From positions 1 through 60,887 of IMG/VR virus record IMGVR_UViG_3300028196_000013: a stretch of 60,887 nt of DNA; one strand, given 5' to 3'. Made by a program: the position numbers and the translations under genes. This document shows, piece after piece, positions 7,128 through 50,718 of the stretch (its first letter is position 1; every line of letters starts with the position of its first letter). Under the pieces are notes generated by a model. It saw only the letters and a list, made by a program, of their open reading frames with translations. It was not told where the DNA came from and did no database searches. Origin of the DNA: a virus. Lineage: Duplodnaviria; Caudoviricetes.

Positions 7128-8075
7128 CTATTCCTTGGGAATCAATGATGGCTTTTGAGGCTGCACAGTAGACCACTTACAGTAAACACATTGGTGATTC
7201 TTTAGAGTTGTCATAGAAACAGATCGCAGTGAACAAACATTGTGGCATCCAGGGCACACCTTTGTTTCCTCATCCGCAGATACATCGGATATTGGGTGCC
7301 AGTACCCAGATGAAAGAAACTCTTCATAACTCATTTGTTTTACCGGGAAGTCGGGTCGTCCAAATGTCCACGCACCGGCATATTTGTATGAACCGTCTGT
7401 GTATTGAGCCATAAAATAAATGTCGTCTGCAGGATAAATGTACATGCTTGCTTCGTCCACAGTTGTATTATCTACTCTCATGCTCAGCTCCCGAATAAGC
7501 GCAGCATGGTCTTTCTCACTTACATACATGGTGTCCTTGATGAGTTTTGCCTTTGTCCACCCTTTGAATGGAGGCACGACATAGCCGGGGCTGCTCCATG
7601 CCCCGTAACGACTACGATGCTGGCTTCCTTGCACCGTTTGGCCCTCCTTCTCGATGTATTTGGGTTTCTGAGTATGCTCGACCCATCCTATCAGTGAACC
7701 TTTGGGCATTTGGATAAGGCGAACATCGTGGCCCGATTGTATTAACGAATTAGGTGCCCTCTCGAATGGCAATTGCAAAACCTTGTACCACAATGGCGAC
7801 GATGACTGTGCAGTTACGGAACATTTCAAGCACAAGGGTGTGCGTGTTGTTGATTTAATCGTGGAGGTGCCGAATATCTTTTCGTAAATTTCTTCATGGC
7901 CATCCATTCGAATTAAATGTTTCAATTCCGGCCTCCAACTCCTATTCATTGTGGAGCCAAAAGATGCAGGTTTTTCTCCACACCTGGCATCGCCATCAGG
8001 GCTATCGTAAATGTGGTACTCTTCGTTTACCTTTGCAATGTACGGGGTCTTTTGAGGATCTATCATTTGCAACAC
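7128..8075 (-). CDS. Hypothetical protein with CxxC pairs
   Basis: 315 aa; CLKC, CPGC, CVYC. Confidence 0.55.
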   Translation of the reverse strand: MLQMIDPQKTPYIAKVNEEYHIYDSPDGDARCGEKPASFGSTMNRSWRPELKHLIRMDGHEEIYEKIFGTSTIKSTTRTPLCLKCSVTAQSSSPLWYKVLQLPFERAPNSLIQSGHDVRLIQMPKGSLIGWVEHTQKPKYIEKEGQTVQGSQHRSRYGAWSSPGYVVPPFKGWTKAKLIKDTMYVSEKDHAALIRELSMRVDNTTVDEASMYIYPADDIYFMAQYTDGSYKYAGAWTFGRPDFPVKQMSYEEFLSSGYWHPISDVSADEETKVCPGCHNVCSLRSVSMTTLKNHQCVYCKWSTVQPQKPSLIPKE

Positions 8076-8354
8076 TCCTGCAACAAGGGAAGATTATGCA
8101 ACAAGGCGATAAGTTGTATGACTTGTATGCGAGTTGTATTGTGTGCAAGATGTAGGACTGTTTTTCCCATGAACCTACTGACAACCATGCACAGACCACC
8201 TGCTTTGCTTCACATGGACAACCTACATGAAGGCTTCGCTACTCATGGAGTGTGGCCCAATACTTCATGTTCCAAGAAGGTTATAAGGTTCAAGTGCTTG
8301 ATTGCTAATGGGCGGAAGTGTGTATAGCATACAAGCCGTATAGGAGATGTAAAA

Positions 8355-8561
8355 TTGGCAGAACTTGAATCAAACATACATGAAGCATTACTGAACACAT
8401 TGGCTAAAGAGGGTACACTTTCTCCAGAAATCAAGCAGGCCTGCATGATGCTGGGTATCGCAGTAATGAGTGACCTCCGCATGGTAGTTCGAGAAGAACT
8501 CGAACGGTTCGGTTTAGCGGTCCATCTGGTTGGCGAGGAGGAAAAGAAAGATGTGGAATAG
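8355..8561 (+). CDS. Hypothetical protein
   Basis: 68 aa; AGGAG SD upstream. Confidence 0.5.
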   Translation: MAELESNIHEALLNTLAKEGTLSPEIKQACMMLGIAVMSDLRMVVREELERFGLAVHLVGEEEKKDVE

Positions 8562-9429
8562 GCCAGGTCGTCAATTTGACAATTGCGTAACTGCTCTGGA
8601 GTATGCCCTGTTGACAAGGGCTGCAGGGGAACTGTATCGTCGTATCACGGTAGGTGAGCCCACTGAAACGCCCCTGTTCTCCGATTTTCCTGCCCAGCAC
8701 CAAACCTACTATCTGGGATACACTATGATGCATTTTGGCTCTCCGAGGACAGAACCGCCGGAGATAAGCTCACAGGCAGAATCGACCATAGCGGCTCTTT
8801 TTGAGGTTCTTTTTGATCTCTGCCACGACGACGATGAAATGCGATTCCTTCTGTCCTCGGTTTGGGCCGAGCATATGAAGGAGTGTGAAGATGACGATTT
8901 TCTTCAAGAGTGGGCGGATCTGCTGCTCGATGATGAAAGATTTGAACTGTCTCTTGAGAAAATTCTTGAGGCGATTCTCGACACCTTCCTGCATGACGGG
9001 GACTATGAAATACATGCATGGGCTGTCCAAGAGGAATTCTTGCAGTTGGAATTTTCTAAAATCCCTGTGTCGGAAATCAAACGACAAACAGAATTCCTGC
9101 TCAAGCTCTACGATCTTTCCACTAAACCGTTGACGAAGCACTTGGATGCACTTCGGCCACAGGAAGGTGGATGGGAAGTTGAAAAACAACCCGATGGCAG
9201 TTATGCCATCAAGACGGGAAGAGATATCTTTTCCTTAGAAGAAGCAGAGGCTATCGCCAAACTACCTGGCCTTGTTAAGAAATCCTCTAAACCATTGAAA
9301 AAATCCCATTCCGAATGGATCTCGATGATGAACTACATCCAAAAGCGATGCGGTAAAGCAAGGACAATTGAAATCTTGCAGTGTGTTTGGAACGGGATTG
9401 AAATTATCGAAGAAGGTGATGGGGAATGA
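8530..9429 (+). CDS. Acidic helical hypothetical protein
   Basis: 299 aa ORF; start uncertain. Confidence 0.6.
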   Translation: MARRKRKMWNRPGRQFDNCVTALEYALLTRAAGELYRRITVGEPTETPLFSDFPAQHQTYYLGYTMMHFGSPRTEPPEISSQAESTIAALFEVLFDLCHDDDEMRFLLSSVWAEHMKECEDDDFLQEWADLLLDDERFELSLEKILEAILDTFLHDGDYEIHAWAVQEEFLQLEFSKIPVSEIKRQTEFLLKLYDLSTKPLTKHLDALRPQEGGWEVEKQPDGSYAIKTGRDIFSLEEAEAIAKLPGLVKKSSKPLKKSHSEWISMMNYIQKRCGKARTIEILQCVWNGIEIIEEGDGE

Positions 9430-9998: not shown

Positions 9999-10823
9999 AT
10001 GAGAGCCGCAATATACACCCGAGTAAGCACCACCGGCCAAGAATTAGATGGTCATTCTCTCGAAGAACAAGAGAGGCAATGTAAACAACTAATTGAATTC
10101 CAAGGAAACGAACTCGTGAAGATCTATTCCGATGTCGGCTCTGGTGGTTCGTTTGAAAACAGACCGGGGTATCGATTGATGTTGGAAGAGATGAACAAAG
10201 AATGGGATATCGTTTATGTTTGGAAGCTTGACCGGCTAAACAGAAATCTTCGGAACTCAATTCTGTTCTTTGAGACTCTTGGTGACAGAGACGCATACAT
10301 CTCTTGTATAACAGAGCAAGTTGACACTTCGAACCCTATGGGGCGGTTCATAATCAATATCATGTCTTCTCTCGCTCAAATGGAGAGGGAGCAGACAAGA
10401 GAGCGAGTGATAATGGGGAGTGAAGCCGCCAGGAGAGCAGGAAGGTGGACCGGTGGAGTTCCTTATGGGTATGAGATCCCAATTACCTTCGATTCGACAG
10501 GCAACCGCATTGAAAGGGGACTTTTGAAAAGACATTCACAAGAAGCACCTGTTGTTCAAAAGATATTTGAATTGAGGGCTACGGGGTGCAAGGTCTCTAC
10601 AATTTGTAACATGCTGGTTGAAAGCGGAACTCGAACTCGGCATGGAAATTTAATTTGGAATCAAAACACTGTGACCGGAATTTTGAATCGTTACGACCTG
10701 TATGTTCGCGGGCACAACCAACAAAGTCAAGCATTGTGGGAGCCAATCGTATTCTTGACCGAGGGCGAAGCCAATAGAATATTGAAATCATTAGGCAGAG
10801 AACCTGTTTCAGAAGAAGAATGA
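9999..10823 (+). CDS. Serine recombinase (resolvase domain plus recombinase domain)
   Basis: YTRVST catalytic Ser, SG...RPG, KLDRLNR, GGVPYGY; GAGGAGG SD. Confidence 0.93.
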   Translation: MRAAIYTRVSTTGQELDGHSLEEQERQCKQLIEFQGNELVKIYSDVGSGGSFENRPGYRLMLEEMNKEWDIVYVWKLDRLNRNLRNSILFFETLGDRDAYISCITEQVDTSNPMGRFIINIMSSLAQMEREQTRERVIMGSEAARRAGRWTGGVPYGYEIPITFDSTGNRIERGLLKRHSQEAPVVQKIFELRATGCKVSTICNMLVESGTRTRHGNLIWNQNTVTGILNRYDLYVRGHNQQSQALWEPIVFLTEGEANRILKSLGREPVSEEE

Positions 10824-12314: not shown

Positions 12315-12620
12315 TCAATTCAACCCAGCGTAAATGATTGCCAATGGGAAGGCAGAGAAACCAATTGCACTCATTTTCCTGCGGTGTTTCTTAGATGAAT
12401 AGGCTGCATAAAGTCCGCCTAAACTAACGCCGGTTCCGAGAAGCAAAACGAGTTTTTCATTGCCGGACAACTTGTTGACTTGCTTCCCGACAACACTCCC
12501 AAGGGATCTGCCAAGTGAGGCAGGTGGAGCGCCAGGTGCAGAAGTCAAATTGCTGAAATTTACAGGGCCGTTTCCGACATCGAAAGATGGTACATTAAGA
12601 AAATCAGTCATATTACTCAA
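12315..12620 (-). CDS. Membrane protein
   Basis: Two hydrophobic segments at the C-terminus. Confidence 0.6.
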   Translation of the reverse strand: MSNMTDFLNVPSFDVGNGPVNFSNLTSAPGAPPASLGRSLGSVVGKQVNKLSGNEKLVLLLGTGVSLGGLYAAYSSKKHRRKMSAIGFSAFPLAIIYAGLN

Positions 12621-17612: not shown

Positions 17613-18207
17613 CTACAGCCGAGGAGGCGAGGCCGACATGCAAAGCTGTCATTGTATCGGGCGAAGCACCTACTAAGATGGGAATTCCAACAATCGCTCC
17701 GATGCCTCCTGCGACAATAGCGGGGCCCTTTTGGAATGATGGTGCGACTTCGCTCCAGTCAAGGCCAGCCAGCCCAGCACCCAGAAGACCCAACAATACA
17801 ACGCCTCCACCTGTCATGGCCCGGTAAAAGGGATCTTCAACAACAGGCGCAGGCTCTTCTGCCCGAGTCGAATTGGCAGCAACTGAGGCAGCAACACCAG
17901 CAACTGCGCCGGCTACCGCAGTTGCGGTACGGCCTTCCTTGGAGTCTCCCAATTTAATCCCCCCATCTTCTAACATATTAGCCAGCAATACTCCAGCGAT
18001 ACCCCCGGCGAGGCCGTAGGCTACGGAATCAGTGACAGCTCCACTCCTGGACGGGAGAATGGCAAAACCCATGTTTGGGTTGGTCAAACCGTAATTCATT
18101 GGTTTCAGTTGACTTACTCTCTTCATTCGAGATCTGTGGGTCTCACCGACTCTTTGATTGCCTAAGATGTTGTAATTGTCCTTTCCTATGTGGCTTGCAG
18201 GTATCAT
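17572..18207 (-). CDS. Gly/Ala-rich multi-TM membrane protein
   Basis: Several GxxxG-type hydrophobic segments. Confidence 0.6.
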   Translation of the reverse strand: MIPASHIGKDNYNILGNQRVGETHRSRMKRVSQLKPMNYGLTNPNMGFAILPSRSGAVTDSVAYGLAGGIAGVLLANMLEDGGIKLGDSKEGRTATAVAGAVAGVAASVAANSTRAEEPAPVVEDPFYRAMTGGGVVLLGLLGAGLAGLDWSEVAPSFQKGPAIVAGGIGAIVGIPILVGASPDTMTALHVGLASSAVGVGLAHRLLGSVN

Positions 18208-18659
18208 TCTAAATCCTCCATTCGTGTCAAATCATCCAATTCCGTTTGTAATTGGTCAAGACTTTTTTCTTCTGGCTGTTGCTCTTCATCTATGTCGGCG
18301 TCACCAGTCCAGTCATCATCCTCTTCTAAAACAATCTCGTGGAGTGCGTTTGCAGACATGCGCATGGTTGGATAAACTGGTACGGCAGAAACGCACCGGT
18401 AATGGTAACTAATGCCTGTGTAAGCGGACCGCCTTGTGATTCTTACGACCGAATCAATCGGCCATCGTGCTGATACTCCTTTTGGCCTTGGAACGCAAGC
18501 ACCAAGCAAAGCAGGATCGTCAATGCCGATGAGCGGCAACGCCGATGTTTCGATTTTACCGTCGATTACCAGGCCGAAAGGCTGTAATTCTTGAATGGCT
18601 TCTTGGTCAGTCAGGACCTCGTGCATTGGCACGAGTGCATGATTTAAGACTCCCGCCAT
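18204..18659 (-). CDS. rpo5: RNA polymerase subunit Rpo5/RpoH (RPB5 C-terminal) homolog with insertions and acidic tail
   Basis: HALVPMHEVL, LPLIGIDDP, VVRITRRS..TGISYHYRCV match the Rpo5 consensus. Confidence 0.85.
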   Translation of the reverse strand: MAGVLNHALVPMHEVLTDQEAIQELQPFGLVIDGKIETSALPLIGIDDPALLGACVPRPKGVSARWPIDSVVRITRRSAYTGISYHYRCVSAVPVYPTMRMSANALHEIVLEEDDDWTGDADIDEEQQPEEKSLDQLQTELDDLTRMEDLE

Positions 18660-18697
18660 AGCAATGCCAAGAGGTTTTATCAATTGAAGATGCCGAT

Positions 18698-18856
18698 TCA
18701 CTCGCTGGAATCAGCTTCGAGAATCTTTGCACCCAAGGCCACAAGAGATTCGTATGTGTGGACAACTTGAGATTCTGGTACTTCGTGCTTGAGTACGACT
18801 TCGTTTCCGGCTGCGTTCTTGAATGCATAGACAACTTCGATATTGGTTTGGCGCAT
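18698..18856 (-). CDS. Small hypothetical protein (52 aa, not in ORF track)
   Basis: MRQTNIEVVYAFKNAAG...; TATA-like TTAAAA about 25 bp upstream. Confidence 0.45.
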   Translation of the reverse strand: MRQTNIEVVYAFKNAAGNEVVLKHEVPESQVVHTYESLVALGAKILEADSSE

Positions 18857-23145: not shown

Positions 23146-23544
23146 ATGGCTAAACTGAAAGTATTGAAGCAGATAGAGAAGTTGTTTATCCGCACAGGCG
23201 AAGATGTCCTCGCCTTCAAAACAATCATGTCTAATGTGGATGAAAGGAGAAGCACCCTGCTTGGAGTGCTTTCTTCGAATAAAAAAGTATTTTCTAAAAT
23301 TGCAAAAAATCAATGGCAGTACATTCCGGATACACGAGGCTCCGTTGAGGAAATGTGCCGACAATATGGATTTGACCGTGAAGAAATCGCCCATTTGGTG
23401 ACAGAAGATGGGGGTTTGCAGTATTCGTGGGTACGAGTCAAGCCTTCAGGAGACTTAATCTCCAGGAGGGAGTTTCATTACCTTCTCCATACAATGCAAA
23501 AGCATGGCGAAGTTATTGACGACGAATCCGCCGTAACTGCTTGA
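23146..23544 (+). CDS. Hypothetical protein, possible winged helix
   Basis: 132 aa; GGAGG SD; abuts the RHH gene. Confidence 0.55.
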   Translation: MAKLKVLKQIEKLFIRTGEDVLAFKTIMSNVDERRSTLLGVLSSNKKVFSKIAKNQWQYIPDTRGSVEEMCRQYGFDREEIAHLVTEDGGLQYSWVRVKPSGDLISRREFHYLLHTMQKHGEVIDDESAVTA

Positions 23545-24520
23545 CAACAGTTGAGGGAATCATCTTGTTCTCAGCTTGTTGAGGATTGACCAGAACCAGT
23601 GGACGGTTTAAGTTCCTAAGCGCCTCTGCCGCCCTGTAAACACCCTTTCTGTCTATCATCGCCACTCTTGCTATGGCTGCCCCACTGAATCTTCTTGGCC
23701 GTGTCTTTGCCTCCTTCGATGCAGCAAGCATCAACGCAGCACAGGCATGATCAACTGCCCGAATGTTAGGCACTGTCTCTTTTGCAATTTCTAATGCCTC
23801 TTTCAGCATCTCGGGTGGAGTCTCAATTTTACTTGCGAGGTGTGATACAATCTCGACAGCATCAAGGCGATTGATATCGAATAGGTTGTTTGCCCTTGCA
23901 TCACTTAGAAAGCGATTTACAACTTTGACAGATGGCTTTTCGCTGTGAGCTTTCGCTAATTTTGCCACCGGCACGGGCATCCCTGCATTGAGTGATGCGA
24001 CACGCAAAGCGGCCACAGCAGTGACCTTATGGCCTCTGCCGCCAGAACCACTTCCATACTCGTGAAACAAATTGAATAAGCGAGTGGCCTCTTCAATTCG
24101 TCTCAATGTAAAACCAAATGCGTCAGCGACTCTTTCCATCTCCGTTCTTGCATCCTCCTTTCTTCGCTGAGACCCTGATTTGGAGACGGTCATGTTCATC
24201 GGTGCAGATAGGCCAGTCTCTTTGTCGTATGACTCACTATTCGACTCAAGGATGTCCAAGGGGCGGGACAAGCCACAATGCTTGCATGCAATCTGCCAGT
24301 CAGCGTTTTCATTTTTTGCTGATTTTGATAAAACAGTTTCCTTTTGGATCAATTCATCAAATTTGTATTTCAAAGTTGCATCAGAGATTTCCTTGTTGGA
24401 AACCATTCCATGTTCAGCCATTATGTGCAGCACCGCACAATTTACAGGCCACCCCGATTGACATTCAGCTCCGTCAAAAGCTTTCTTTTCGAGAGTAGTG
24501 TATTCGGATAAGTCGGCCAT
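23513..24520 (-). CDS. tfb: Transcription factor B (TFB/TFIIB)-like protein
   Basis: CKHCG then two cyclin-fold repeats (MERVADAFG..GRGHKVTAVAAL; ACAALMLAA..AIARVA); likely start MADLS at 24520. Confidence 0.8.
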   Translation of the reverse strand: MADLSEYTTLEKKAFDGAECQSGWPVNCAVLHIMAEHGMVSNKEISDATLKYKFDELIQKETVLSKSAKNENADWQIACKHCGLSRPLDILESNSESYDKETGLSAPMNMTVSKSGSQRRKEDARTEMERVADAFGFTLRRIEEATRLFNLFHEYGSGSGGRGHKVTAVAALRVASLNAGMPVPVAKLAKAHSEKPSVKVVNRFLSDARANNLFDINRLDAVEIVSHLASKIETPPEMLKEALEIAKETVPNIRAVDHACAALMLAASKEAKTRPRRFSGAAIARVAMIDRKGVYRAAEALRNLNRPLVLVNPQQAENKMIPSTVVKQLRRIRRQ

Positions 24521-24539
24521 GCTAATGCTAAGAGGTCCA

Positions 24540-25005
24540 TTATGATAAATACCGATGGCATATTTGCATGATGCAATTATACAAATTGCGAATACAGGGT
24601 GCTGCAAATGTAGCAGGAACGCCCGCCATGCAATTGAAGCTGCCCTCGGATCGTGCTTACGAACGAATCCAGGGGCCGGTTATCAAGTCCGATGGCATAT
24701 TTGCATGATGCAATTATATTTATTGCGTAAACAGGCTTGTAAGTCTATGATCTACGAGCCGCACAGCGTAAAGCTGTGTTTCAGGCGAGCATTTGCGCCG
24801 AACAGAGGTCTGTTATGAAGGCCGATGGCGTAAATGCACGATACAATGTTAAACACTGCGTAAACAGGATGCTGATTCAGTACAGAATTGGCTTCAGGAC
24901 ATGAGGGCATGGTGAGATCCACCAAGCTCCTGCGTCTCAAAGACCTCATTTATGAAGGCCGATGGCACAAACGCACGATACAACATTAAACATTATGAAA
25001 TAGGG
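24540..25005. repeat. Four ~60-bp direct repeats at 133-137 bp spacing
   Basis: CCGATGGC core at 24552, 24689, 24822 and 24959, each within TTAT..CCGATGGC..GCAYGATRCAA..AGG. Confidence 0.9.
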
Positions 25006-25640
25006 CAGGGGTTAAGCACCCCGTAGCACATTAGAATGATGCGAGCAAAGAGAGTCCACAAGAGCAACAGACCGTTGCTTAGGGCTCCAATGGCTCATAA
25101 GAATGAAACAACTTAACAACAAAAGCCGGTGAGGTTACGACCTCTCACGAGCCACCTTTGAAAACCCCGTAGCAGGGGATCATCACTGGAATTATGGTTC
25201 ACCGGCTGCACACCAACAGGAAATTGCGATACCAAAGGCTTCGGCCTTCGCACCCAGTTGATGCAGCAAATCGAATACTGCCGTGGTTGCTAACCACGAC
25301 AAGCGCTCCCAGGCATCTTAGTTAGATGCAGAATGGATAGGCGGACTCGAAAGAGAAGAAGATTTGCAGCCCTAAGCCGTTTGGTAGCGGTATGGGCATA
25401 CGGTAAAGTGACCCTGGAGACAGGACGAGGACAGAAAATAAAGAAATACCGTTGCGATTCCGGTCAATTCCGGATGAGCTTACTGTCGACAGACATTTGA
25501 TGAGCGACACTGCAGCAATGCGTGTGTCGTAACAGGATGGGAGTTACTCCGAACTAAACCTCTTGAGGCATGTTCGAGTCATCACACAAGTGCTTGCACT
25601 TGAGGAAATTCCTTACATCTTGTCTCCATAAATGGGTCAC

Positions 25641-25672
25641 ACTTAACAACTTAACAACTTAACAAACTTAAC
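25641..25672 (+). repeat. Tandem ACTTAACA repeat (about 4 units)
   Basis: ACTTAACAACTTAACAACTTAACAAACTTAAC. Confidence 0.9.
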
Positions 25673-25812
25673 CTAATCGGGAATTAGGGGCGCTCTTAAG
25701 CCCCCGAAAGCCCAATAGAATGAGGAGGGATAACACCCAACTCACGCTGACCACTCTAACCGTAGAATACGCACCGAAAGGATGCGACGGGAAACGATGG
25801 AAAGCGACGGCT

Positions 25813-25866
25813 GAAACCAGAGATGGTGGAGGCAAAACCGCCGAAACCAGAGATGGTGGAGGCAAA
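25813..25866 (+). repeat. 24-bp direct repeat, 30-bp period
   Basis: GAAACCAGAGATGGTGGAGGCAAA twice. Confidence 0.9.
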
Positions 25867-26235
25867 CCACTGATACACCCGGCAGCCTAACAGCAGAAGA
25901 CAGGAATGAACGCCGGCCTGCGAAAGAAATCCCCGAAAGGGGGCACCGTAAAATGAATCAGTAACCAACAAAAGAAACAACAGGAGGATTTGGGATCCTT
26001 TCCTTGCGAAATTGCAATCGCTTGGACCGTAAGGACCCTTAACCTGTGAATGCTCTGATGAAGACGATTCCTACGGGATGAAGGCGATTCGGAATGTTTC
26101 GGATGTGAACCATGATGCGAGATGGGGATTTTGAACTCGAAAGAGAACTTAACACAGCAACCGAAAGGTGCAACAATGCGACACACCATTCTGATGGTTG
26201 GTCAGCGTGCGACAGGGTGCGACAGCACCACAACA

Positions 26236-26549
26236 TCACCCCGTAGGGGGTTCTTTCTCTCAAGCAGGTTCGAAAAGTGCCTACGCAAGCAAATCGCAAG
26301 CGGCGAGAAGAGAAAGAAACAAGAGGGCGTTTGCCCAACCGGACCGTGCTTCCGGAGAAAAAATAGTGCAAGCCCCCCTTGAGGTGTAGATAGGGAAAAT
26401 CTTAACATTTTCACCCCATGTGGGGTTTCTTCGTCTCAAGACTGATGTTCGGCGGCGGGAAGCGAAGACAACAAGAGGGCGATTGCCCATACCGGACCGT
26501 GCTTCCGGCAAAAAATAGTGCAAGCCTCCCTTGAGGTGTAGATAGGGAA
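26236..26549 (+). repeat. Two diverged copies of a ~140-160 nt element (putative ncRNA)
   Basis: 26236-26397 and 26411-26549 share AAGAGGGCG..TGCCC..CCGGACCGTGCTTCCGG..AAAAAATAGTGCAAGCC..GAGGTGTAGATAGGGAA; separated by CTTAAC. Confidence 0.85.
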
Positions 26550-26555
26550 CTTTAC

Positions 26556-26813
26556 ATGACCATGAAATTACCCGTAGGAGTAGTGGATAATCAACTTGCT
26601 TGGCACATCGATTCGGTGTTTGCTAAGCGTTTTGATAGAATCCAATGCGCAGAACAGAATAGATTATGGAATATTTGCCAAAAACGAATGGAACAAAAAA
26701 GGTTGAACTCAACCTCAGTATCCTGTCCGAATGGCAAATGGCAAATTGAAATCGATTTCAAAACAGCGGGAGATATCGCATACCAGTGGTGTCTTCTTGC
26801 AGAAGGAAACTGA
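26556..26813 (+). CDS. Hypothetical protein
   Basis: 85 aa; preceded by variant CTTTAC|ATG; stop lies in CTGAAC. Confidence 0.6.
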   Translation: MTMKLPVGVVDNQLAWHIDSVFAKRFDRIQCAEQNRLWNICQKRMEQKRLNSTSVSCPNGKWQIEIDFKTAGDIAYQWCLLAEGN

Positions 26814-26815
26814 AC

Positions 26816-27334
26816 ATGTCTAATTTTAGAGGACGCAGCAGACGAAAGAATGTAGATAAGAGGATAACACCATTTATCGCAAACAAGAACATCGCAATAC
26901 TTCGGTCAGAGGTTTTGGTCGAGGTTCGCATTGGAAAGTCGCATGAAAATTTCACTTTGCCCTGGAGCCGAGTGGTTGGTCAGACTGTTATAGGCAAACT
27001 GCCTTTAGAGAGACAACCAGAATATCTCCAGAAAATAGCCAAGAGTCTTGGTGAGCATTTACTCTGGAACGGGCCACAGACACCACCGTGTCTCAATCCC
27101 GATACAGTTGAAAATTTCATGAGTAACGATGAATTCCTCGAACGACAAGCCCTTCGAAAGATGGGGCCTAACAGTCGAAAAAACAGAGGAAACAAAGGAA
27201 AGAAAATGAAACAAGGAATTAGCAAGAACCAAAATCACACATTTGTGAACAAACATGGAGTGTTGATTCTGAACGGTAGTCAAGCAACTGCCGACAAGAA
27301 AGCGAAAGAACGAGCGCAAGGCGAGTTCTATTGA
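26816..27334 (+). CDS. Basic hypothetical protein
   Basis: First CTGAAC|ATG start (MSNFRGRSRRK); K/R-rich. Confidence 0.7.
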   Translation: MSNFRGRSRRKNVDKRITPFIANKNIAILRSEVLVEVRIGKSHENFTLPWSRVVGQTVIGKLPLERQPEYLQKIAKSLGEHLLWNGPQTPPCLNPDTVENFMSNDEFLERQALRKMGPNSRKNRGNKGKKMKQGISKNQNHTFVNKHGVLILNGSQATADKKAKERAQGEFY

Positions 27335-27357
27335 TTAACTGAACAGGGGAATTTATT

Positions 27358-29307
27358 ATGAACCGAAAAATGAGCGCTGAAGGCGCAATAAAAAGCAATG
27401 AAAAGGACGCACACCTATTTGTGCGAATATTGACCGTTATGGTGAATATGTTGACACTGATGAAGACGGAAACCATGGGAATGTTTTTCCGTCTTGACAT
27501 CAAGAATGACCCAGCCAACCGCGTTGGGTCTGAAACAACCAAGGGTGCGCTTGTTGAGATTCAATTCAACAGCAAACTGGTTGAAAAACTTGTGAAACTG
27601 ACATCAGCAATGGTGAACAAGTTTCATGCCGGCAGAAAAAGTCGGCGCAAAATGTCAACAGACACCGACGAACCAATATCTGCATCAGATGAAACTCCAA
27701 ACTGGGACGATGTTCCGTTTGTAGCTTTCATCGTGAGGCAAGTCTATAGGATCTTGGCAGCACCGAAGTACATTTGTTCCGTCGAAGGGAGCGAATACTT
27801 CAATGAATGCTATTACAAAGTCGGTTGTGAAGCCGGCAAGATAACGATCCAAATACAAGATTGGGCTCGAGGAGAACGAATTGCAACTGGCAGTTCAAAG
27901 ACAGGCTTTAAGAAGAGATGGACCAACAAACATTGGAACCATGGACATCAGCCATTCCTCAGAATCAATCATGCTACCTACAACGAGTTAATCCGAAGTG
28001 GGCAAAAAGCAAGAACAACAACGCCGCGTGGAAAAGTCCTTGAAACAGAGGAAGACGCGCAAAAATACAACCAAGGAAAGAAAGACCGGATGCTGTATAT
28101 GAATGCAGCTTTGGCCGTTCAAACCATCTTGAAGTTTACTCCTGAAAAGGGATTCGTCAAGGAAGGTCACGGCCACCCAGTAGGTTACTACATCGAATCA
28201 GGGAAAGCCCCGAACAGGCACACCCGAGTCGTTGGATACATCTACGCTAACGAAGACACCCGGTTCCGAGTCAAAGGACTCAAAGAAGACCAACTTGAAA
28301 CTGTTTACACATATCCTAACCACTTTGGCGGGGACCGTGAATCGAACGGTAGAGATGCAGCCTTCTTCCTGAGAGACTCCGTCCTTGGAGAGAAAAAGCG
28401 AAATGGTGGCCGAGGGGCCTCCAGTATCAAATTTGGAGACAAGTCAAGCAAGAAGAAGGAAGTCATTGCGCACTTCCAACAACCTGCGAAGGAACTCTTC
28501 AAGAAAGGCAAAGGCGGAGCATTCGTCCTAACGCAAAAAACCGTGGAATATGTATTCAATACAGACATCTGCGGTGGAAAGTATCGGACAATTGCAACGC
28601 AACTCAAACTCAGACAACGACGCGAATCAACAGTGACTCTTGGAGATGCACTTTTGGGGAGCGAAAGGGGCATGTTTTGGAAGATGCTCATGTCGATTGG
28701 CCCGTTCTCATCAACACCTACCCCAGAACACAAGGTTCGTGAAGGCTTCGGCCAACTGAACCCCAAGTTTGCGGATGGCGTGAGAACAGTCCCTCGTAGG
28801 AGTAAGGAGAATGACAAAGGTTGGACCGAGCGTGGTCTACTGAATTCAAAGGTTAGCTGGAAGGCAGGGGCAATTGGGCCTCGTGCCTGCGGCAACGCCT
28901 GTGAATGCTTCTTATGCCAAGGCAACGAAATTTCTGACGAATTGAACGGATTGTTTGACGAAGACTTACGCAGATTGACTGGTTTGGGCAACTACGACGC
29001 CCCTACCTTGATCCCAGTGATGTCTCGAGACGATGTCCCCGTGTTGAATTACGGGACTGCAGGCAATCCAGATGATGACGCCGAGCAAGCATTGATGCTG
29101 AATACCATGAACGCACATTTTGACACCGATACCTTCCCGATGTGGATTGAAGCGGACCAGTGGAATGCCAAGCAAGGCTTCACCATTGGTGCCCAACTCA
29201 TTTCACGACCAGCGACGCCTGCGGACACAGGCAGACCTGGACACCGGTTGGGATCGGACGAAATTGAATTTGTTGAACTTGTAGCATACCCAACTCACAT
29301 CGAGTAA
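27358..29307 (+). CDS. Large basic hypothetical protein (649 aa) with a CxxxCxCxxC cluster
   Basis: Long ORF; CGNACECFLC; no family recognised. Confidence 0.75.
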   Translation: MNRKMSAEGAIKSNEKDAHLFVRILTVMVNMLTLMKTETMGMFFRLDIKNDPANRVGSETTKGALVEIQFNSKLVEKLVKLTSAMVNKFHAGRKSRRKMSTDTDEPISASDETPNWDDVPFVAFIVRQVYRILAAPKYICSVEGSEYFNECYYKVGCEAGKITIQIQDWARGERIATGSSKTGFKKRWTNKHWNHGHQPFLRINHATYNELIRSGQKARTTTPRGKVLETEEDAQKYNQGKKDRMLYMNAALAVQTILKFTPEKGFVKEGHGHPVGYYIESGKAPNRHTRVVGYIYANEDTRFRVKGLKEDQLETVYTYPNHFGGDRESNGRDAAFFLRDSVLGEKKRNGGRGASSIKFGDKSSKKKEVIAHFQQPAKELFKKGKGGAFVLTQKTVEYVFNTDICGGKYRTIATQLKLRQRRESTVTLGDALLGSERGMFWKMLMSIGPFSSTPTPEHKVREGFGQLNPKFADGVRTVPRRSKENDKGWTERGLLNSKVSWKAGAIGPRACGNACECFLCQGNEISDELNGLFDEDLRRLTGLGNYDAPTLIPVMSRDDVPVLNYGTAGNPDDDAEQALMLNTMNAHFDTDTFPMWIEADQWNAKQGFTIGAQLISRPATPADTGRPGHRLGSDEIEFVELVAYPTHIE

Positions 29308-29438
29308 GGTTTGAACGACTGCAGATTTTGGATGAAGACCGCCGCCCTTACAGGCGGTGTAGCCGCCTGTTGCGGGATGCCGAGTGTATGAAAAATGACA
29401 CCGCCCGCAACAGGCACCACTTTCATTACGAAGAAAAC

Positions 29439-29496
29439 AACGAAGAAAACGAGAGAATTACAAAACGAACGAAGAAAACGAGAGAATTACAAAACG
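29439..29496 (+). repeat. 29-bp tandem duplication
   Basis: AACGAAGAAAACGAGAGAATTACAAAACG twice. Confidence 0.9.
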
Positions 29497-29539
29497 AATA
29501 AACGAATGGAGTAGAACATCTACTCAACTTAACAAACAA

Positions 29540-29890
29540 ATTCAATGGCTGACATAGCCAGTGGAGTGTAGAATCTTACCGAAAACCTGCCAACCGACGA
29601 CCCGCACTGCGGGCTTAGATTGGATAACAGGCGAATAAGTCGGAGGAAAGATTGTGATGGCAATCACGAACTGGGTTCGCATAAGGGTGAAGAACCACCT
29701 GTGGAAATGAAGGCGAGAGCCGAATTGGAAACCATGCACCGCACTCTTGGCTGTCGGCTACTGGCCTCACAGGTCAGTCAAGCGTAAGTGAACGCTGAAT
29801 ATCGAATGAGTTAGGTCGCCTTAGCAGGGCACATGGCCGTTTAGATACCTTGAATCGGATGATCCTTCACAGGATTCCCGGATAGAGGAT
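29540..29890 (+). ncRNA. Putative structured ncRNA (~350 nt)
   Basis: Bounded by CTTAAC (29528) and CTGAAC; GGCTGACATAGCCA can pair with TGGCTGTCGGCT; several local hairpins; no + strand ORF. Confidence 0.45.
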
Positions 29891-30453
29891 AACTGAACAA
29901 CTGAACGGAAGAGGGCGACGAAAAGTTTTCGCGGCTGTTGCAATCACCCTCTTCCACTTAACAACTGAACGGAGAATGCCGAATATGCAGTGGGACCAAT
30001 CTGGCTTCATGGGCGGAGGGAGGTAGACCTGATTGCGGCATTCTCCACTTAACAACTGAACGGAGAATGCCGAATATGCAGTGGGACCGCAATTTCCCGG
30101 CATCGGAGGGAGGTAGACCTGATTGCGGCATTCTCCACTTAACAACTGAACGGAAGAGGGCGACGAAAAGTTTTCTCGACTGTTGCAATCACCCTCTTCC
30201 ACTTAACAACTGAACGGAGAATGCCGAATATGCAGTGGGACCGCAATTTCCCGGCATCGGAGGGAGGTAGACCTGATTGCGGCATTCTCCACTTAACAAC
30301 TGAACAGCTATGGGCGCATAGTGTAGCATGGATATCACTCCGGCCTTCTAAGCCGGAAACCCGGGTTCGAATCCTGGTGCGCCCGCCACTTAACGGAGAA
30401 TTCCGAATATGCCTTGCATGCGGAGGGAGGTAGACCTGATTGCGGATTCTCCA
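29891..30453 (+). repeat. Array of terminally base-paired small RNA-like units (A,B,B,A,B,tRNA,B') joined by ACTTAACAACTGAAC
   Basis: A: 29907-29955 and 30152-30200 (GGAAGAGGG..CCCTCTTCC). B: 29971-30046, 30062-30136, 30216-30290. B': 30395-30452 (GGAGAAT..ATTCTCC). Confidence 0.9.
30312..30388 (+). tRNA. trnR: tRNA-Arg(TCT) with encoded CCA
   Basis: Acceptor stem GGGCGCA/TGCGCCC; anticodon arm CCGGC-CTTCTAA-GCCGG; T loop GGTTCGAATCC; 3' GCCA. Confidence 0.95.
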
Positions 30454-30476
30454 CCTGTGAACACAGGAAACAACTT

Positions 30477-30514
30477 AGAACCAGTCTCGAGTGTCGAGAC
30501 TGGTTCTTTTTTTT
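30477..30514 (+). terminator. 14-bp hairpin plus T8 tract (terminator-like)
   Basis: AGAACCAGTCTCGA-GTG-TCGAGACTGGTTCT then T run. Confidence 0.6.
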
Positions 30515-30542
30515 GGCCTCTGTGAAAGGAGGGTAACTGAAC

Positions 30543-30959
30543 ATGGATTGGATTGAATTACGAGACAATGTCAAACTTATTGACGAAGAAACGGAAACAC
30601 CATGGTTTGAATCGCCATTATTTGTATCATATGAAGAATGGGAGACTAAATGCCCATATGTATTGCTTTACTACGATGGCGAATTGAAGGGGAAAATAGA
30701 AGTTTACACCGATGTAAGCCATGAAACCCGTATGGAAACAAAAACCGCTGAATACATCATTTTGAATAACACGATGTATTACTTGAGCGATTTAGAAGAA
30801 GAAATTGATTGTGAGTGTATCACAACAGACATGGGTGGAAAATGCACCCATTGTTTGAGGGGACCAAGGGATGAGACATACATCACGATGGATGAGACAT
30901 ACATCACGATTGAGAATAAGTCGCCACCTAAACGCCGATTCGGGCGACAGAATATCTGA
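30543..30959 (+). CDS. Hypothetical protein
   Basis: CTGAAC|ATG start; stop in next motif. Confidence 0.75.
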   Translation: MDWIELRDNVKLIDEETETPWFESPLFVSYEEWETKCPYVLLYYDGELKGKIEVYTDVSHETRMETKTAEYIILNNTMYYLSDLEEEIDCECITTDMGGKCTHCLRGPRDETYITMDETYITIENKSPPKRRFGRQNI

Positions 30960-30961
30960 AC

Positions 30962-31336
30962 ATGACTGACAGAATACTATGGATGAATCCCTATGATGGG
31001 AAAGAATACGAAGTAGGCGAGACAATCCCGGTTTACCGAACGGGCGATGGAGGCCTCGTACACAATTCAACTGTTGTGAGACTTGAAGACCCAGGTTTCC
31101 CCGGTGTGGTGGAGATGAAGGATGGCGGGAGATACGAATACAATCATGGAATGGGTGTTGCCCAAGTTAAGAAGTGGTTGATCCCGGCGCTTGAGCCTGA
31201 TATGGATTGGTTCTACCTTGGTCCATCCGAGCAAGGATGGAGAATGTATTACGCAAGAAAAGAACTCAATAAGAGCAAAGCAATAGAAATGGCATCATTT
31301 AACGCCCTCGTGGGAGAAGATGATGAAGATAACTGA
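30962..31336 (+). CDS. Hypothetical protein
   Basis: CTGAAC|ATG start; stop in next motif. Confidence 0.75.
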   Translation: MTDRILWMNPYDGKEYEVGETIPVYRTGDGGLVHNSTVVRLEDPGFPGVVEMKDGGRYEYNHGMGVAQVKKWLIPALEPDMDWFYLGPSEQGWRMYYARKELNKSKAIEMASFNALVGEDDEDN

Positions 31337-49959: not shown

Positions 49960-50718
49960 ATGGAAAATGATACATCTGTAGAATGGACTTATGAAGTGTC
50001 GGGGAAAGCCCTAATGACATTTGTAAAAGAAGTGAACAACCTCGATTGTGACGCAAAATTTGAGCTATTGGAGAATGGAATCACAGTAAATGTGGTTGAT
50101 CCATCTCATGTTAGCATGAGTTCCGTTACGCTTGGAGGAGGAAAACCCATTGGGCTTTCCTACGGAATGGAATTGCGTAGATTGAGAGAGTCCCTGACGG
50201 GCCACACGAAAATGAACGCAAAGGAAACCAGTATGGTTACAATGAACTGCGATGGAGAGATTATGTATGTAGATCTTCAAGACGGAACCAAGTTTTCGTG
50301 GAGAGGCCTCGACCTTTCGACTCTATCGCCACCCACACTACCTGAAATGGAATTGAATGCGTCGATTAGCGTCACAGGTCAACAATTTGCGTTGGGGATT
50401 CAAAGGCAGAGACGGATTGGGGATTTGGCAAGAGTAATGATTACGAAAGATAATTTGGAACTTTCTGTGAATGGCACCACAAGCCGAGTTGTTACGACAA
50501 TTAGTGGCGCTGGCAAAATCAAGGACAAAACCGAGTCCGTACACAGCAACTACAGCCTTACTTATTTGGCTGGTATTGCGAAAGAATGGAAGAATGTTGA
50601 CACAATAACTCTTGAATTAGGAGAGAATTATCCGTTGTTAGCAAGAAAAGTAAACGAAATCGGAGGTGTGGAGATAAAAAGCAAATTTTTCCTCGCACCA
50701 AGAACCGAAGATTACTGA
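49960..50718 (+). CDS. pcn: PCNA sliding clamp homolog (archaeal type)
   Basis: VDPSHVSM; YSLTYL; LGENYPL; C-terminal FFLAPR. Confidence 0.9.
   Translation: MENDTSVEWTYEVSGKALMTFVKEVNNLDCDAKFELLENGITVNVVDPSHVSMSSVTLGGGKPIGLSYGMELRRLRESLTGHTKMNAKETSMVTMNCDGEIMYVDLQDGTKFSWRGLDLSTLSPPTLPEMELNASISVTGQQFALGIQRQRRIGDLARVMITKDNLELSVNGTTSRVVTTISGAGKIKDKTESVHSNYSLTYLAGIAKEWKNVDTITLELGENYPLLARKVNEIGGVEIKSKFFLAPRTEDY

Follow-up and report, generated by a model that had tools for sequence, protein, structure and literature searches.

The IMG/VR virus record IMGVR_UViG_3300028196_000013 (Duplodnaviria; Caudoviricetes) is a linear contig of 60,887 bp with a completeness estimate of 48%, and its whole length is the window analyzed here; about half of the genome is absent from the record, and the record-wide negative results given below cover 60.9 kb. 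Its + strand carries a non-coding array in which small hairpin units of two families, A and B, and a tRNA gene are joined by the hexamer CT(G/T)AAC, which also stands directly in front of the ATG codons of a long chain of genes. We read the array directly in 29600-30800 and then recomputed its coordinates. The order of the units is A1, B1, B2, A2, B3, tRNA-Arg(UCU), and B', followed by a terminator. A tandem (double) signal CTGAACAACTGAAC (29893-29906) heads the array, and after it come the 50-nt hairpin unit A1 with a 9-bp terminal stem and a 3' A (29907-29956), the 14-nt linker CTTAACAACTGAAC (29957-29970, recurring at 30048, 30138, 30202, and 30292), B1 with an 11-bp terminal stem (29971-30047, 77 nt), B2 (30062-30137, 76 nt), A2 (30152-30201, 50 nt), and B3 (30216-30291, 76 nt). 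A 6-nt leader (30306-30311) precedes the tRNA-Arg(UCU) with its encoded CCA (30312-30388; anticodon tct by ARAGORN, and 62 bits versus a threshold of 29 with Rfam RF00005), which is followed directly on its 3' side by CTTAAC (30389-30394) and then by B' (30395-30453), a 59-nt unit with a short inner loop that has lost one stem pair. The module is closed by a terminator composed of a 14-bp hairpin and T8 (30477-30515), beyond which lies the first CTGAAC-ATG of the gene chain (30537-30545, with 70 further genes), the sole such site with a clear Shine-Dalgarno-like sequence, AGGAGGG, upstream. The original prediction, made from the letters of this DNA, gave the order of the units, the linker between them, and the start of B' directly after CTTAAC correctly; it erred in assigning all B copies ~76 nt (they are 77, 76, and 76 nt) and in starting the tRNA at the hexamer, from which the 6-nt leader separates it.

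All five A and B units start directly after CTGAAC, as had been predicted, and their ends pair perfectly over 9 bp in A and 11 bp in B. The hairpin units all begin GGA, and the folds of all units have z-scores of -2.3 to -4.1 versus shuffled sequences (minimum free energy (MFE) -21.4 kcal/mol and z -3.56 for the 51-nt fold of A1; -33.4 kcal/mol and z -3.49 for B1; -20.7 kcal/mol and z -4.09 for A2). Perfect 9-nt terminal pairing within 30-90 nt occurs at 39 of 60,787 start positions of the record, yet five of these fall exactly at +1 of CT[GT]AAC (5 of 107 sites), each then followed by A and CTTAAC, and chance is therefore excluded as the origin of the register of the units relative to the hexamer. 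A1 and A2 differ by two substitutions, B2 and B3 are identical in sequence, and the differences between B1 and B2 are confined to approximately positions 27-44, which bears out the claim that the B copies vary mainly in one internal segment. In the B architecture, the 11-bp stem is constant and encloses a small inner hairpin (UAUG/CAUG), whose loop measures 5 nt to ~20 nt depending on the copy, and a purine-rich segment on the 3' side, which is conserved and has a GGAGG-type core. The array also shows recent segmental duplications of 96-97% identity and packs 13 hexamers into 500 nt. The predicted ending in CCA ahead of CTTAAC was found for the five A/B units and the tRNA, but this register is not strict, as units of a related contig (see below) end CCAC ahead of CTTAAC. 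In the units, CC pairs with the 5' GG and A is position -7 of the next 8-mer, so that GG-started stems and the first A of the motif explain these ends.

The array lies downstream of a gene for a 649-aa protein (27358-29304), an open reading frame (ORF) with four relatives among 5.8 billion proteins. One of these, of 46% amino acid identity, is encoded on an independent metagenome contig of 12,610 bp (L001), the only relative returned by a metagenome scan. Behind this homologue, L001 carries a 359-nt leader RNA (94% nucleotide identity), a double CTGAAC (12410-12423, identical to CTGAACAACTGAAC of the window), and three B-type units, the last of which is cut by the contig end. The 11-bp stems of these units are identical to those in the window, and their inner parts differ; the linker is CCTTAACAACTGAAC, and one copy has the purine-rich third segment replaced. 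B' is 91% identical to L001 12506-12551. A covariance model (R1) built from five B units and run on the record and L001 finds six complete B copies at 67-85 bits (B1, 79.1; B2 and B3, 75.7 each; B', 81.3), with the next best match in either sequence at 13.3 bits. Because L001 shows the same layout independently, next to a protein of 46% identity, the array is not an assembly artefact. The tRNA is identical in sequence at L001 8756-8832, a different motif-flanked location where it is also followed by CTTAAC, and the L001 hairpins at 7765-7853 and a 322-nt RNA at 8021-8342 each have GGA at +1 and paired termini, and then CTTAAC. The view of A and B as new small RNA families is supported, since B is conserved in L001 and neither matches Rfam; a search at E<=10 over 29300-30560 returned only the tRNA at 30312-30388. 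Exact or gapped DNA patterns of the array, the leader RNA, and a second large RNA (RNA-1, below) found no match in a viral contig collection, protein-guided scans with the 649-aa family and with a TFB-like family encoded in the record found none in viral or genome contig collections, and a phage collection gave no match by DNA or protein.

Two other elements of L001 adjoin copies of the motif. At 7861-8007, a 48-codon Cys-rich ORF with no counterpart in the window directly follows CTTAAC and has a double CTGAAC behind it, with a motif-framed RNA on either side. An ~86-nt element with paired ends is present in two copies (8357-8442 and 8669-8755), one free between CTCAAC and CTTAAC and the other joined to the tRNA as its 5' leader; the signal may have a third variant in CTCAAC.

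Across the record, CTGAAC occurs 98 times (90 on the + strand and 8 on the - strand) versus 35.9 +/- 6.4 expected (100 shuffles, maximum 56), and the hexamer is part of an 8-mer, (A)ACT(G/T)AAC. Of the 90 + strand copies, 71 directly abut ATG, and at these gene sites A is found at -8 in 56/71 and at -7 in 69/71. In 52 of the 71 genes, the stop codon is the TGA inside the next CTGAAC, 2 nt ahead of the next ATG; 18 have another stop, with the next CTGAAC <=12 nt away in 17 of them, and one runs off the record. These sites belong to a chain of ~70 mostly tiny genes (44-502 aa; 30543-60887) that run in one direction with hardly any spacers and hardly any database matches, and the contig end falls inside this chain. 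Fifty chain junctions read exactly CTGAACATG, the TGA within being the stop codon. The sequence ahead of the 71 sites is devoid of a TATA-like signal (positions -60 to -14 each carry <=0.12 bit) and shows no enrichment of Shine-Dalgarno cores (GGAG/GAGG at 11/71 versus a background of 10%). The base that follows ACT[GT]AAC is A in 86, G in 6, T in 3, and C in 3 of 98 instances and is thus a purine in 92/98.

The CTTAAC form of the signal is distributed differently, with 15 of 17 + strand copies within the non-coding stretches 25112-26401 and 29528-30389. CTTAAC lacks TGA, and no ORF that could take its stop from the motif lies ahead of CTTAAC or CTTTAC; both nonetheless precede ATG codons. CTTAAC directly precedes ATG at L001 7855 and 8833, and the window homologue of the 8833 gene has CTTTAC-ATG. 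A G/T swap is found in front of the leader RNA, where CTTAAC at 29528 of the window corresponds to CTGAAC at 12046 of L001. In both viruses, a copy of the signal also precedes the 649-aa gene, 12-16 nt before its ATG, despite diverged flanks. The earlier argument that the motif marks boundaries independently of translation therefore holds: it is kept at matching places in L001, and it bounds non-coding RNAs (ncRNAs) without an ORF.

Besides the 71 ATG codons, the 8-mer bounds three large conserved ncRNAs upstream of the array, all on the + strand. The leader RNA (359 nt, 29534-29892) begins after CTTAAC (29528-29533), ends at the first CTGAAC of the array, and is 94% identical in nucleotide sequence to L001 12052-12409, as compared with 46% for the adjacent protein. 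Its fold has an MFE of -115.1 kcal/mol (z -2.94), and of the 110 pairs of the predicted structure, none is broken between the two viruses, five are changed on one side, and two show compensatory changes. RNA-1 (524 nt, 25118-25641) has CTTAAC on both sides and ~95% identity to L001 6620-7145; of its 157 predicted pairs, none is broken, three are changed on one side, and two are compensatory (z -5.65). RNA-2 (~475 nt, 25673-26147) lies between four tandem CTTAAC (25642-25672) and CTTAAC at 26148 and has its L001 counterpart at ~7165-7750. Proteins neighbouring the large ncRNAs are 46% and 78% identical between the two viruses. Rfam contains no family for the leader RNA, RNA-1, or RNA-2. RNA-2 includes a 30-nt tandem repeat (25807-25866) with two copies here, three in L001, and other numbers in RNA contigs.

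To these conserved intervals we can add evidence from RNA. Six metatranscriptome runs contain 0.23-0.26 of the words of 29500-30560, and Logan contigs of four metatranscriptome runs from four studies were placed on 24400-31000. Contigs on RNA-1 span 25118-25541, 25129-25640, and 25133-25637, and those on the leader RNA span 29547-29880, 29547-29851, and 29563-29888, with starts at 29547, 29563, and 29570 and a furthest end at 29891; RNA-2 is covered to a depth of up to 58.7 (run X17). The RNA contigs nearly fill the intervals between motifs and stop there. Among the matches listed, none of 32 RNA contigs touches any of nine motif sites, whereas random placement with the same lengths gives a mean of 12.1 touching and zero in 0 of 20,000 trials. 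This discontinuity of RNA at motif sites holds for the RNAs neighbouring the array and for three genes. The genes for the 649-aa protein and for a very basic 172-aa protein (26816-27331, between the ncRNA blocks) are transcribed in the RNA runs, and one RNA contig (29097-29465) extends past the end of the 649-aa ORF into the 3' region, as would fit a leader RNA cut from a longer transcript. At 29844-29859, RNA contigs of related strains (runs X16 and X17) diverge from the window sequence, and relatives thus differ in the 3' portion of the leader RNA or in the sequence behind it. Cover at 30146-30587 comes from foreign tRNA fragments, the pieces at 30341-30377 being foreign tRNA T-arms with both ends loose, and was rejected. 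In the same four runs, no RNA contig lies on 30588-31000, past the terminator.

We consider it about an even proposition that the 8-mer punctuates RNA, with long transcripts being cut there into the hairpins, the pre-tRNA, the ncRNAs, and near-leaderless mRNAs. The signal heads every unit, RNAs begin after it and end before it, and there is neither a T-run before it nor a TATA element upstream, all of which lead to this reading. The + strand block would be transcribed as long precursors, which a sequence-specific endoribonuclease of viral or host origin would cut at or beside the signal; exonucleases would then trim the products to their terminal stems. The products would be A and B as stable hairpins, the tRNA precursor with its short leader, the large ncRNAs, and mRNAs whose 5' end lies at AUG or only a few bases ahead of it; translation of such mRNAs could do without a Shine-Dalgarno sequence, in keeping with the absence of these sequences from the chain. 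We infer, rather than observe, cleavage as opposed to transcription start and stop, the enzyme and cut position, and the production of A and B at all. In a more far-reaching form, which we put forward only tentatively and regard as doubtful, a transcript of more than 35 kb would be cut at every (A)ACU(G/U)AAC into ~70 leaderless mRNAs and stable ncRNAs, with the array RNAs regulating the process as decoys of the nuclease or reader, or as Shine-Dalgarno mimics that divert host ribosomes.

Several points weigh against RNA punctuation. A further 22 shorter contigs lie outside the 32 listed, contigs of one RNA across runs are not independent, and the evidence consists of contigs rather than reads; contigs do not provide exact 5' or 3' ends, strand, 5' chemistry, or the distinction of a cut from a start. 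No RNA contig lies on the array, with zero cover of 29925-30145 in the four runs; standard libraries lose RNAs of 50-77 nt and repeats hinder assembly, such that this zero is not evidence of absence. The proposal that CT(G/T)AAC is an RNA processing boundary draws support from contigs that stop and start beside the sites; the RNA ends within the array are predicted. Conservation and covariation rest on two genomes, the record and L001, and no covariation was seen in the A/B stems, which are sequence-identical. No nuclease was found in Pfam scans, which covered 70 ORFs of the record, and six-frame searches of the record for Cas6, EndA, RNase III, PIN, ToxN, and PemK were all negative. Finally, C at -1 with a purine at +1 is also compatible with a transcription initiator, and the motif TGA as the stop of 52/71 genes is also compatible with translational coupling.

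The first of these compatibilities underlies an alternative that we view as possible but unlikely, in which the 8-mer is an initiator or mini-promoter and each unit is transcribed separately from the purine after AAC by a host RNA polymerase re-targeted by viral TFB-like and RpoH/Rpb5-like proteins. The invariant C at -1, the purine at +1 in 92/98 ACT[GT]AAC, the GGA start of every hairpin unit, and RNA contigs that begin just past motif sites would all follow from it, and an Rpb5_C-type protein (39.6 bits) and, beside the ncRNA region, a TFIIB-like protein (21.9 bits, below cut-off) are encoded in the record. Archaeal-type initiation normally needs TATA/BRE-like information, however, and none is present 20-40 nt upstream of the 71 sites. 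Separate promoters without terminators would yield nested read-through transcripts, but the RNAs end before the next motif without oligo-T, there is no read-through among the contigs listed, and the contig at 29097-29465 continues from the 649-aa ORF towards the leader RNA. Coupling, for its part, would make the 8-mer purely translational, a termination-reinitiation spacer or factor site, with the array a sponge or decoy or a descendant of gene junctions and the RNA ends unrelated to it. The 52/71 genes that stop at the motif TGA 2 nt ahead of the next ATG, the lack of Shine-Dalgarno sequences in chain genes, and the 13 hexamers within 500 nt of the array, as a titrating RNA would have, speak for this. 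We nevertheless hold it to be rather improbable, since the motif bounds ncRNAs with no ORF downstream, in both viruses the signal precedes the ATG of the 649-aa gene at a distance of 12-16 nt, CTTAAC and CTTTAC supply no stop yet precede ATG, and RNA contigs end and begin at the sites.

Three further explanations concern the array more than the gene chain. Phage tRNA clusters hold extra small stable RNAs, and A and B, which are clustered with a tRNA and have 9-11-bp stems from the first base followed by one unpaired A, could be tRNA-like minihelices matured by host RNase P (before the first G), RNase Z (after the unpaired A), and CCA addition, with no part for the hexamer in making their ends. 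ARAGORN and the Rfam tRNA model detect the true tRNA only, no T-loop or cloverleaf was seen in the units by eye, the CCA is base-paired except for its A, and the L001 units end CCAC; as this reading also leaves the signal at 71 ATG codons and around RNAs of 359-524 nt unexplained, we judge it improbable. The same two detection results, which recognise 30312-30388 alone, speak against the tRNA-like class that the original prediction had offered for A and B. That prediction also named a recombination boundary. A DNA-level element, be it an origin of replication complete with iterons and inverted repeats or the boundary of a cassette or of recombination, would account for the differences in unit order and copy number between the viruses, the tRNA at another motif-flanked place in L001, and the segmental duplications of 96-97% identity. 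The Pfam scans also place a gene for a serine recombinase at 9999-10820. Against it stand the strict strand bias (90 + versus 8 -), the exact position at start codons, and the location of the tRNA, terminator, and expressed flanking RNAs on the same strand; the region is not AT-rich, and the GC skew merely follows gene orientation and is uninformative on an origin. We find this explanation very improbable. Recombination at the repeated linkers probably does happen, given the unit order and tRNA position of the two viruses, and looks like a by-product rather than the function.

A guide-RNA array of CRISPR or TIGR type, with the 649-aa protein as effector and the leader RNA as accessory RNA, is in our estimate barely plausible. 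The layout of a protein gene, a conserved ncRNA, tandem stem-loops with linkers, and a terminator is suggestive of one, as is the single variable inner segment among B copies, and viral stem-loop TIGR arrays processed at linkers exist (PMC12045711). Yet neither a Nop domain nor Cas6 is encoded in the record, searches of Pfam, PHROG, and PDB sequences give no match for the 649-aa family, the stems are constant rather than variable, and there is one variable segment instead of two 8-12-nt spacers between twice-repeated box motifs. Only three B variants are present, two of the five copies are identical, and there are no targets in the virus or L001. In a blastn-short comparison of all six units with the rest of the record and L001, only chance matches of 10-12 nt were obtained, which lends no weight to the predicted guide role of the variable B segments. 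Six-frame searches of the 60.9-kb record found no Nop domain (PF01798) at E<=1 and no Cas6 (PF10040), and Pfam scans of the 70 ORFs found no Nop domain.

Other known classes were compared with the array and rejected. CRISPR arrays consist of identical repeats of ~23-50 nt interspersed with spacers that are each unique; here the constant part is the 14-nt linker, the "spacers" are repeated hairpins, and there is no Rfam CRISPR-DR match in the array. The layout of tandem stem-loops and linkers resembles the TIGR stem-loop type, but the five aligned B units show one variable loop on constant stems, and A1 and A2 differ by two bases. Type III toxin-antitoxin RNAs (ToxI-like) were set aside with the ToxN family (PF13958) not found in the record. 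Bulge-helix-bulge substrates of the archaeal splicing endonuclease have a 4-bp helix between two bulges of 3 nt where they are cut; here the terminal stems are perfect 9- and 11-bp helices, the flanking linkers are identical and not complementary, and no EndA (PF01974) was found in the record. Box C/D sRNAs have their C and D boxes beside a terminal stem, where these form a kink-turn; the B units lack a C box after the 5' stem, although CUGA occurs near the B 3' stem, and there is no Rfam match; Y RNA/YrlA was likewise rejected, with TROVE (PF05731) not found in the record and no Rfam match. The start-associated sequence (SAS) of Cluster K phages was rejected as an identity of the motif, which is 8 nt, abuts ATG, and is without a Shine-Dalgarno core. 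As a guess, A and B might be small protein-binding RNAs (decoys or sponges), e.g., for the factor that reads the signal; in view of its conserved GGAGG-type segment, B may act on ribosomes instead.

Several described systems share features with RNA punctuation as proposed here. In mitochondrial tRNA punctuation, folded tRNAs are cut out by RNase P and RNase Z, with FASTK proteins acting at non-tRNA junctions, and precursors cut at such marks give leaderless or near-leaderless mRNAs and structural RNAs; here, in contrast, a short linear sequence serves as the mark, and the tRNA is one of the units that it sets off. In ToxI/ToxN systems, an endoribonuclease cuts the array and mRNAs at the same short motif, and tandem RNA repeats of ~36 nt are followed by a terminator and then protein genes, much as here; this record, however, has no ToxN-family protein that we could find, its hairpins are 50-77 nt and belong to two families, and the motif is placed at gene starts rather than scattered. 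RNA viruses, too, have one short conserved sequence at the head of every unit, but their gene-start/gene-end and transcription-regulating sequences act on RNA templates via RNA-dependent polymerases, whereas the present record is from a DNA virus and contains PCNA-, TFB-, and RpoH-like genes.

A parallel in sequence placement is the SAS of Cluster K mycobacteriophages (PMC3203893). Like the signal described here, it is a short asymmetric repeat in one orientation, confined to the non-structural half of the genome, located just upstream of many starts (mostly ATG), and sometimes containing the stop of the upstream gene. It differs in its length of 13 bp, in its Shine-Dalgarno core, and in its distance of 3-7 bp to the start, and it is not reported there before ncRNAs (PMC3203893), whereas the signal described here is 8 nt without such a core, abuts ATG at 71 genes, and frames hairpins, a tRNA, and ncRNAs. 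TIGR stem-loop arrays likewise consist of tandem stem-loop units and linkers in viruses, including archaeal ones; dual-repeat TIGR arrays are often closed by a terminator, and a tested stem-loop array is processed at its linkers by an RNase not identified in that work (PMC12045711). The same paper describes two 8-12-nt variable spacers flanked by box C/D motifs, variable palindromic stems, and a neighbouring Nop-domain Tas protein. Here, by contrast, the stems are constant, one loop varies, the record has no Nop domain, and the linker motif is common to gene starts. In the literature searched, the letters of the motif matched only primer sequences among the matches listed; no short linear signal common to all gene starts and stable RNA genes of a DNA virus was found (supplements lay outside this scope), and work on archaeal viruses, leaderless mRNAs, and processing sites describes none.

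The surroundings of the array and the gene content of the record bear on the host. The 649-aa family, which has 13 relatives among 1.84 billion representatives, has an invariant Cys cluster near residues 511-520, and an AlphaFold prediction on five sequences is unusable (pLDDT 36). The family of the 172-aa basic protein is likewise tiny. Transcription- and replication-related proteins include an Rpb5_C/RpoH-type protein (18204-18701, - strand; Pfam 39.6 bits versus a cut-off of 23.5, E 4.6e-10), the TFIIB-like (TFB-like) protein that adjoins the ncRNA region (23513-24607, - strand), and a PCNA-like protein (49960-50715, + strand; Pfam, barely above cut-off). One of 11 relatives of the TFIIB-like protein carries PF00382, and members of its family occur on contigs of up to 53 kb. 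Other Pfam matches in the record are glycosyltransferases, an N6/N4 DNA methylase, and little else, and the first gene past the terminator (30543-30956) has no Pfam or PHROG match. In a protein atlas, the Rpb5 and PCNA look-alikes group among viruses labelled Uroviricota and Methanobacteriota archaea, and marine archaeal viruses with TFB and PCNA are documented (PMC10768690). Taken together, the Rpb5/RpoH-, TFIIB-, and PCNA-like proteins, their atlas placement, and these documented viruses make an archaeal host likely, although the hairpin and T8 terminator and the AGGAGGG ahead of the first chain gene would be compatible with a bacterial one as well. The three kinds of genes also point to possible interference with host transcription.

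Additional repeats surround the ncRNA blocks. Four ~135-bp direct repeats (24533-24992) occupy the interval between the divergent TFB-like gene and the first of these blocks. In each, a palindrome (TTGCATGATGCAA or a variant of it) precedes a TATA-like stretch rich in A/T, and the repeats may serve the entire + strand block as promoters or operators. Two copies of a ~152-nt non-coding element, 84-98% identical in blocks, lie at 26240-26550, the first ending with CTTAAC and the second with the CTTTAC-ATG of an 85-aa gene. A 29-nt A/G-rich tandem repeat (29434-29491; two copies, 93% identical) closely precedes the leader RNA and falls in the 3' region of the 649-aa gene.

The stretch 29500-30560 or part of it is present in 20 runs of 18 studies, all marine or seawater, and in 14 DNA runs at least 0.56 of its sampled words are found, which exceeds what the non-array part alone allows. 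Seawater metagenomes of 18 studies contain the virus, which gives the system a wide ecological distribution, and the three large RNAs are present in marine metatranscriptomes of several studies. Five or more RNA families of the locus are unannotated (A, B, the 359-nt leader RNA, the 524-nt RNA-1, and RNA-2), and they are extremely conserved, with 94-95% nucleotide identity versus 46-78% for neighbouring proteins. Should the 8-mer prove to be a signal for cleavage or initiation, this DNA virus would resolve a giant polycistron into leaderless messages and stable RNAs by one short linear code. Such a code, if true, would constitute a third solution beside mitochondrial tRNA punctuation and spliced-leader trans-splicing and would imply a new sequence-specific RNase or initiation factor, possibly of use as a tool.

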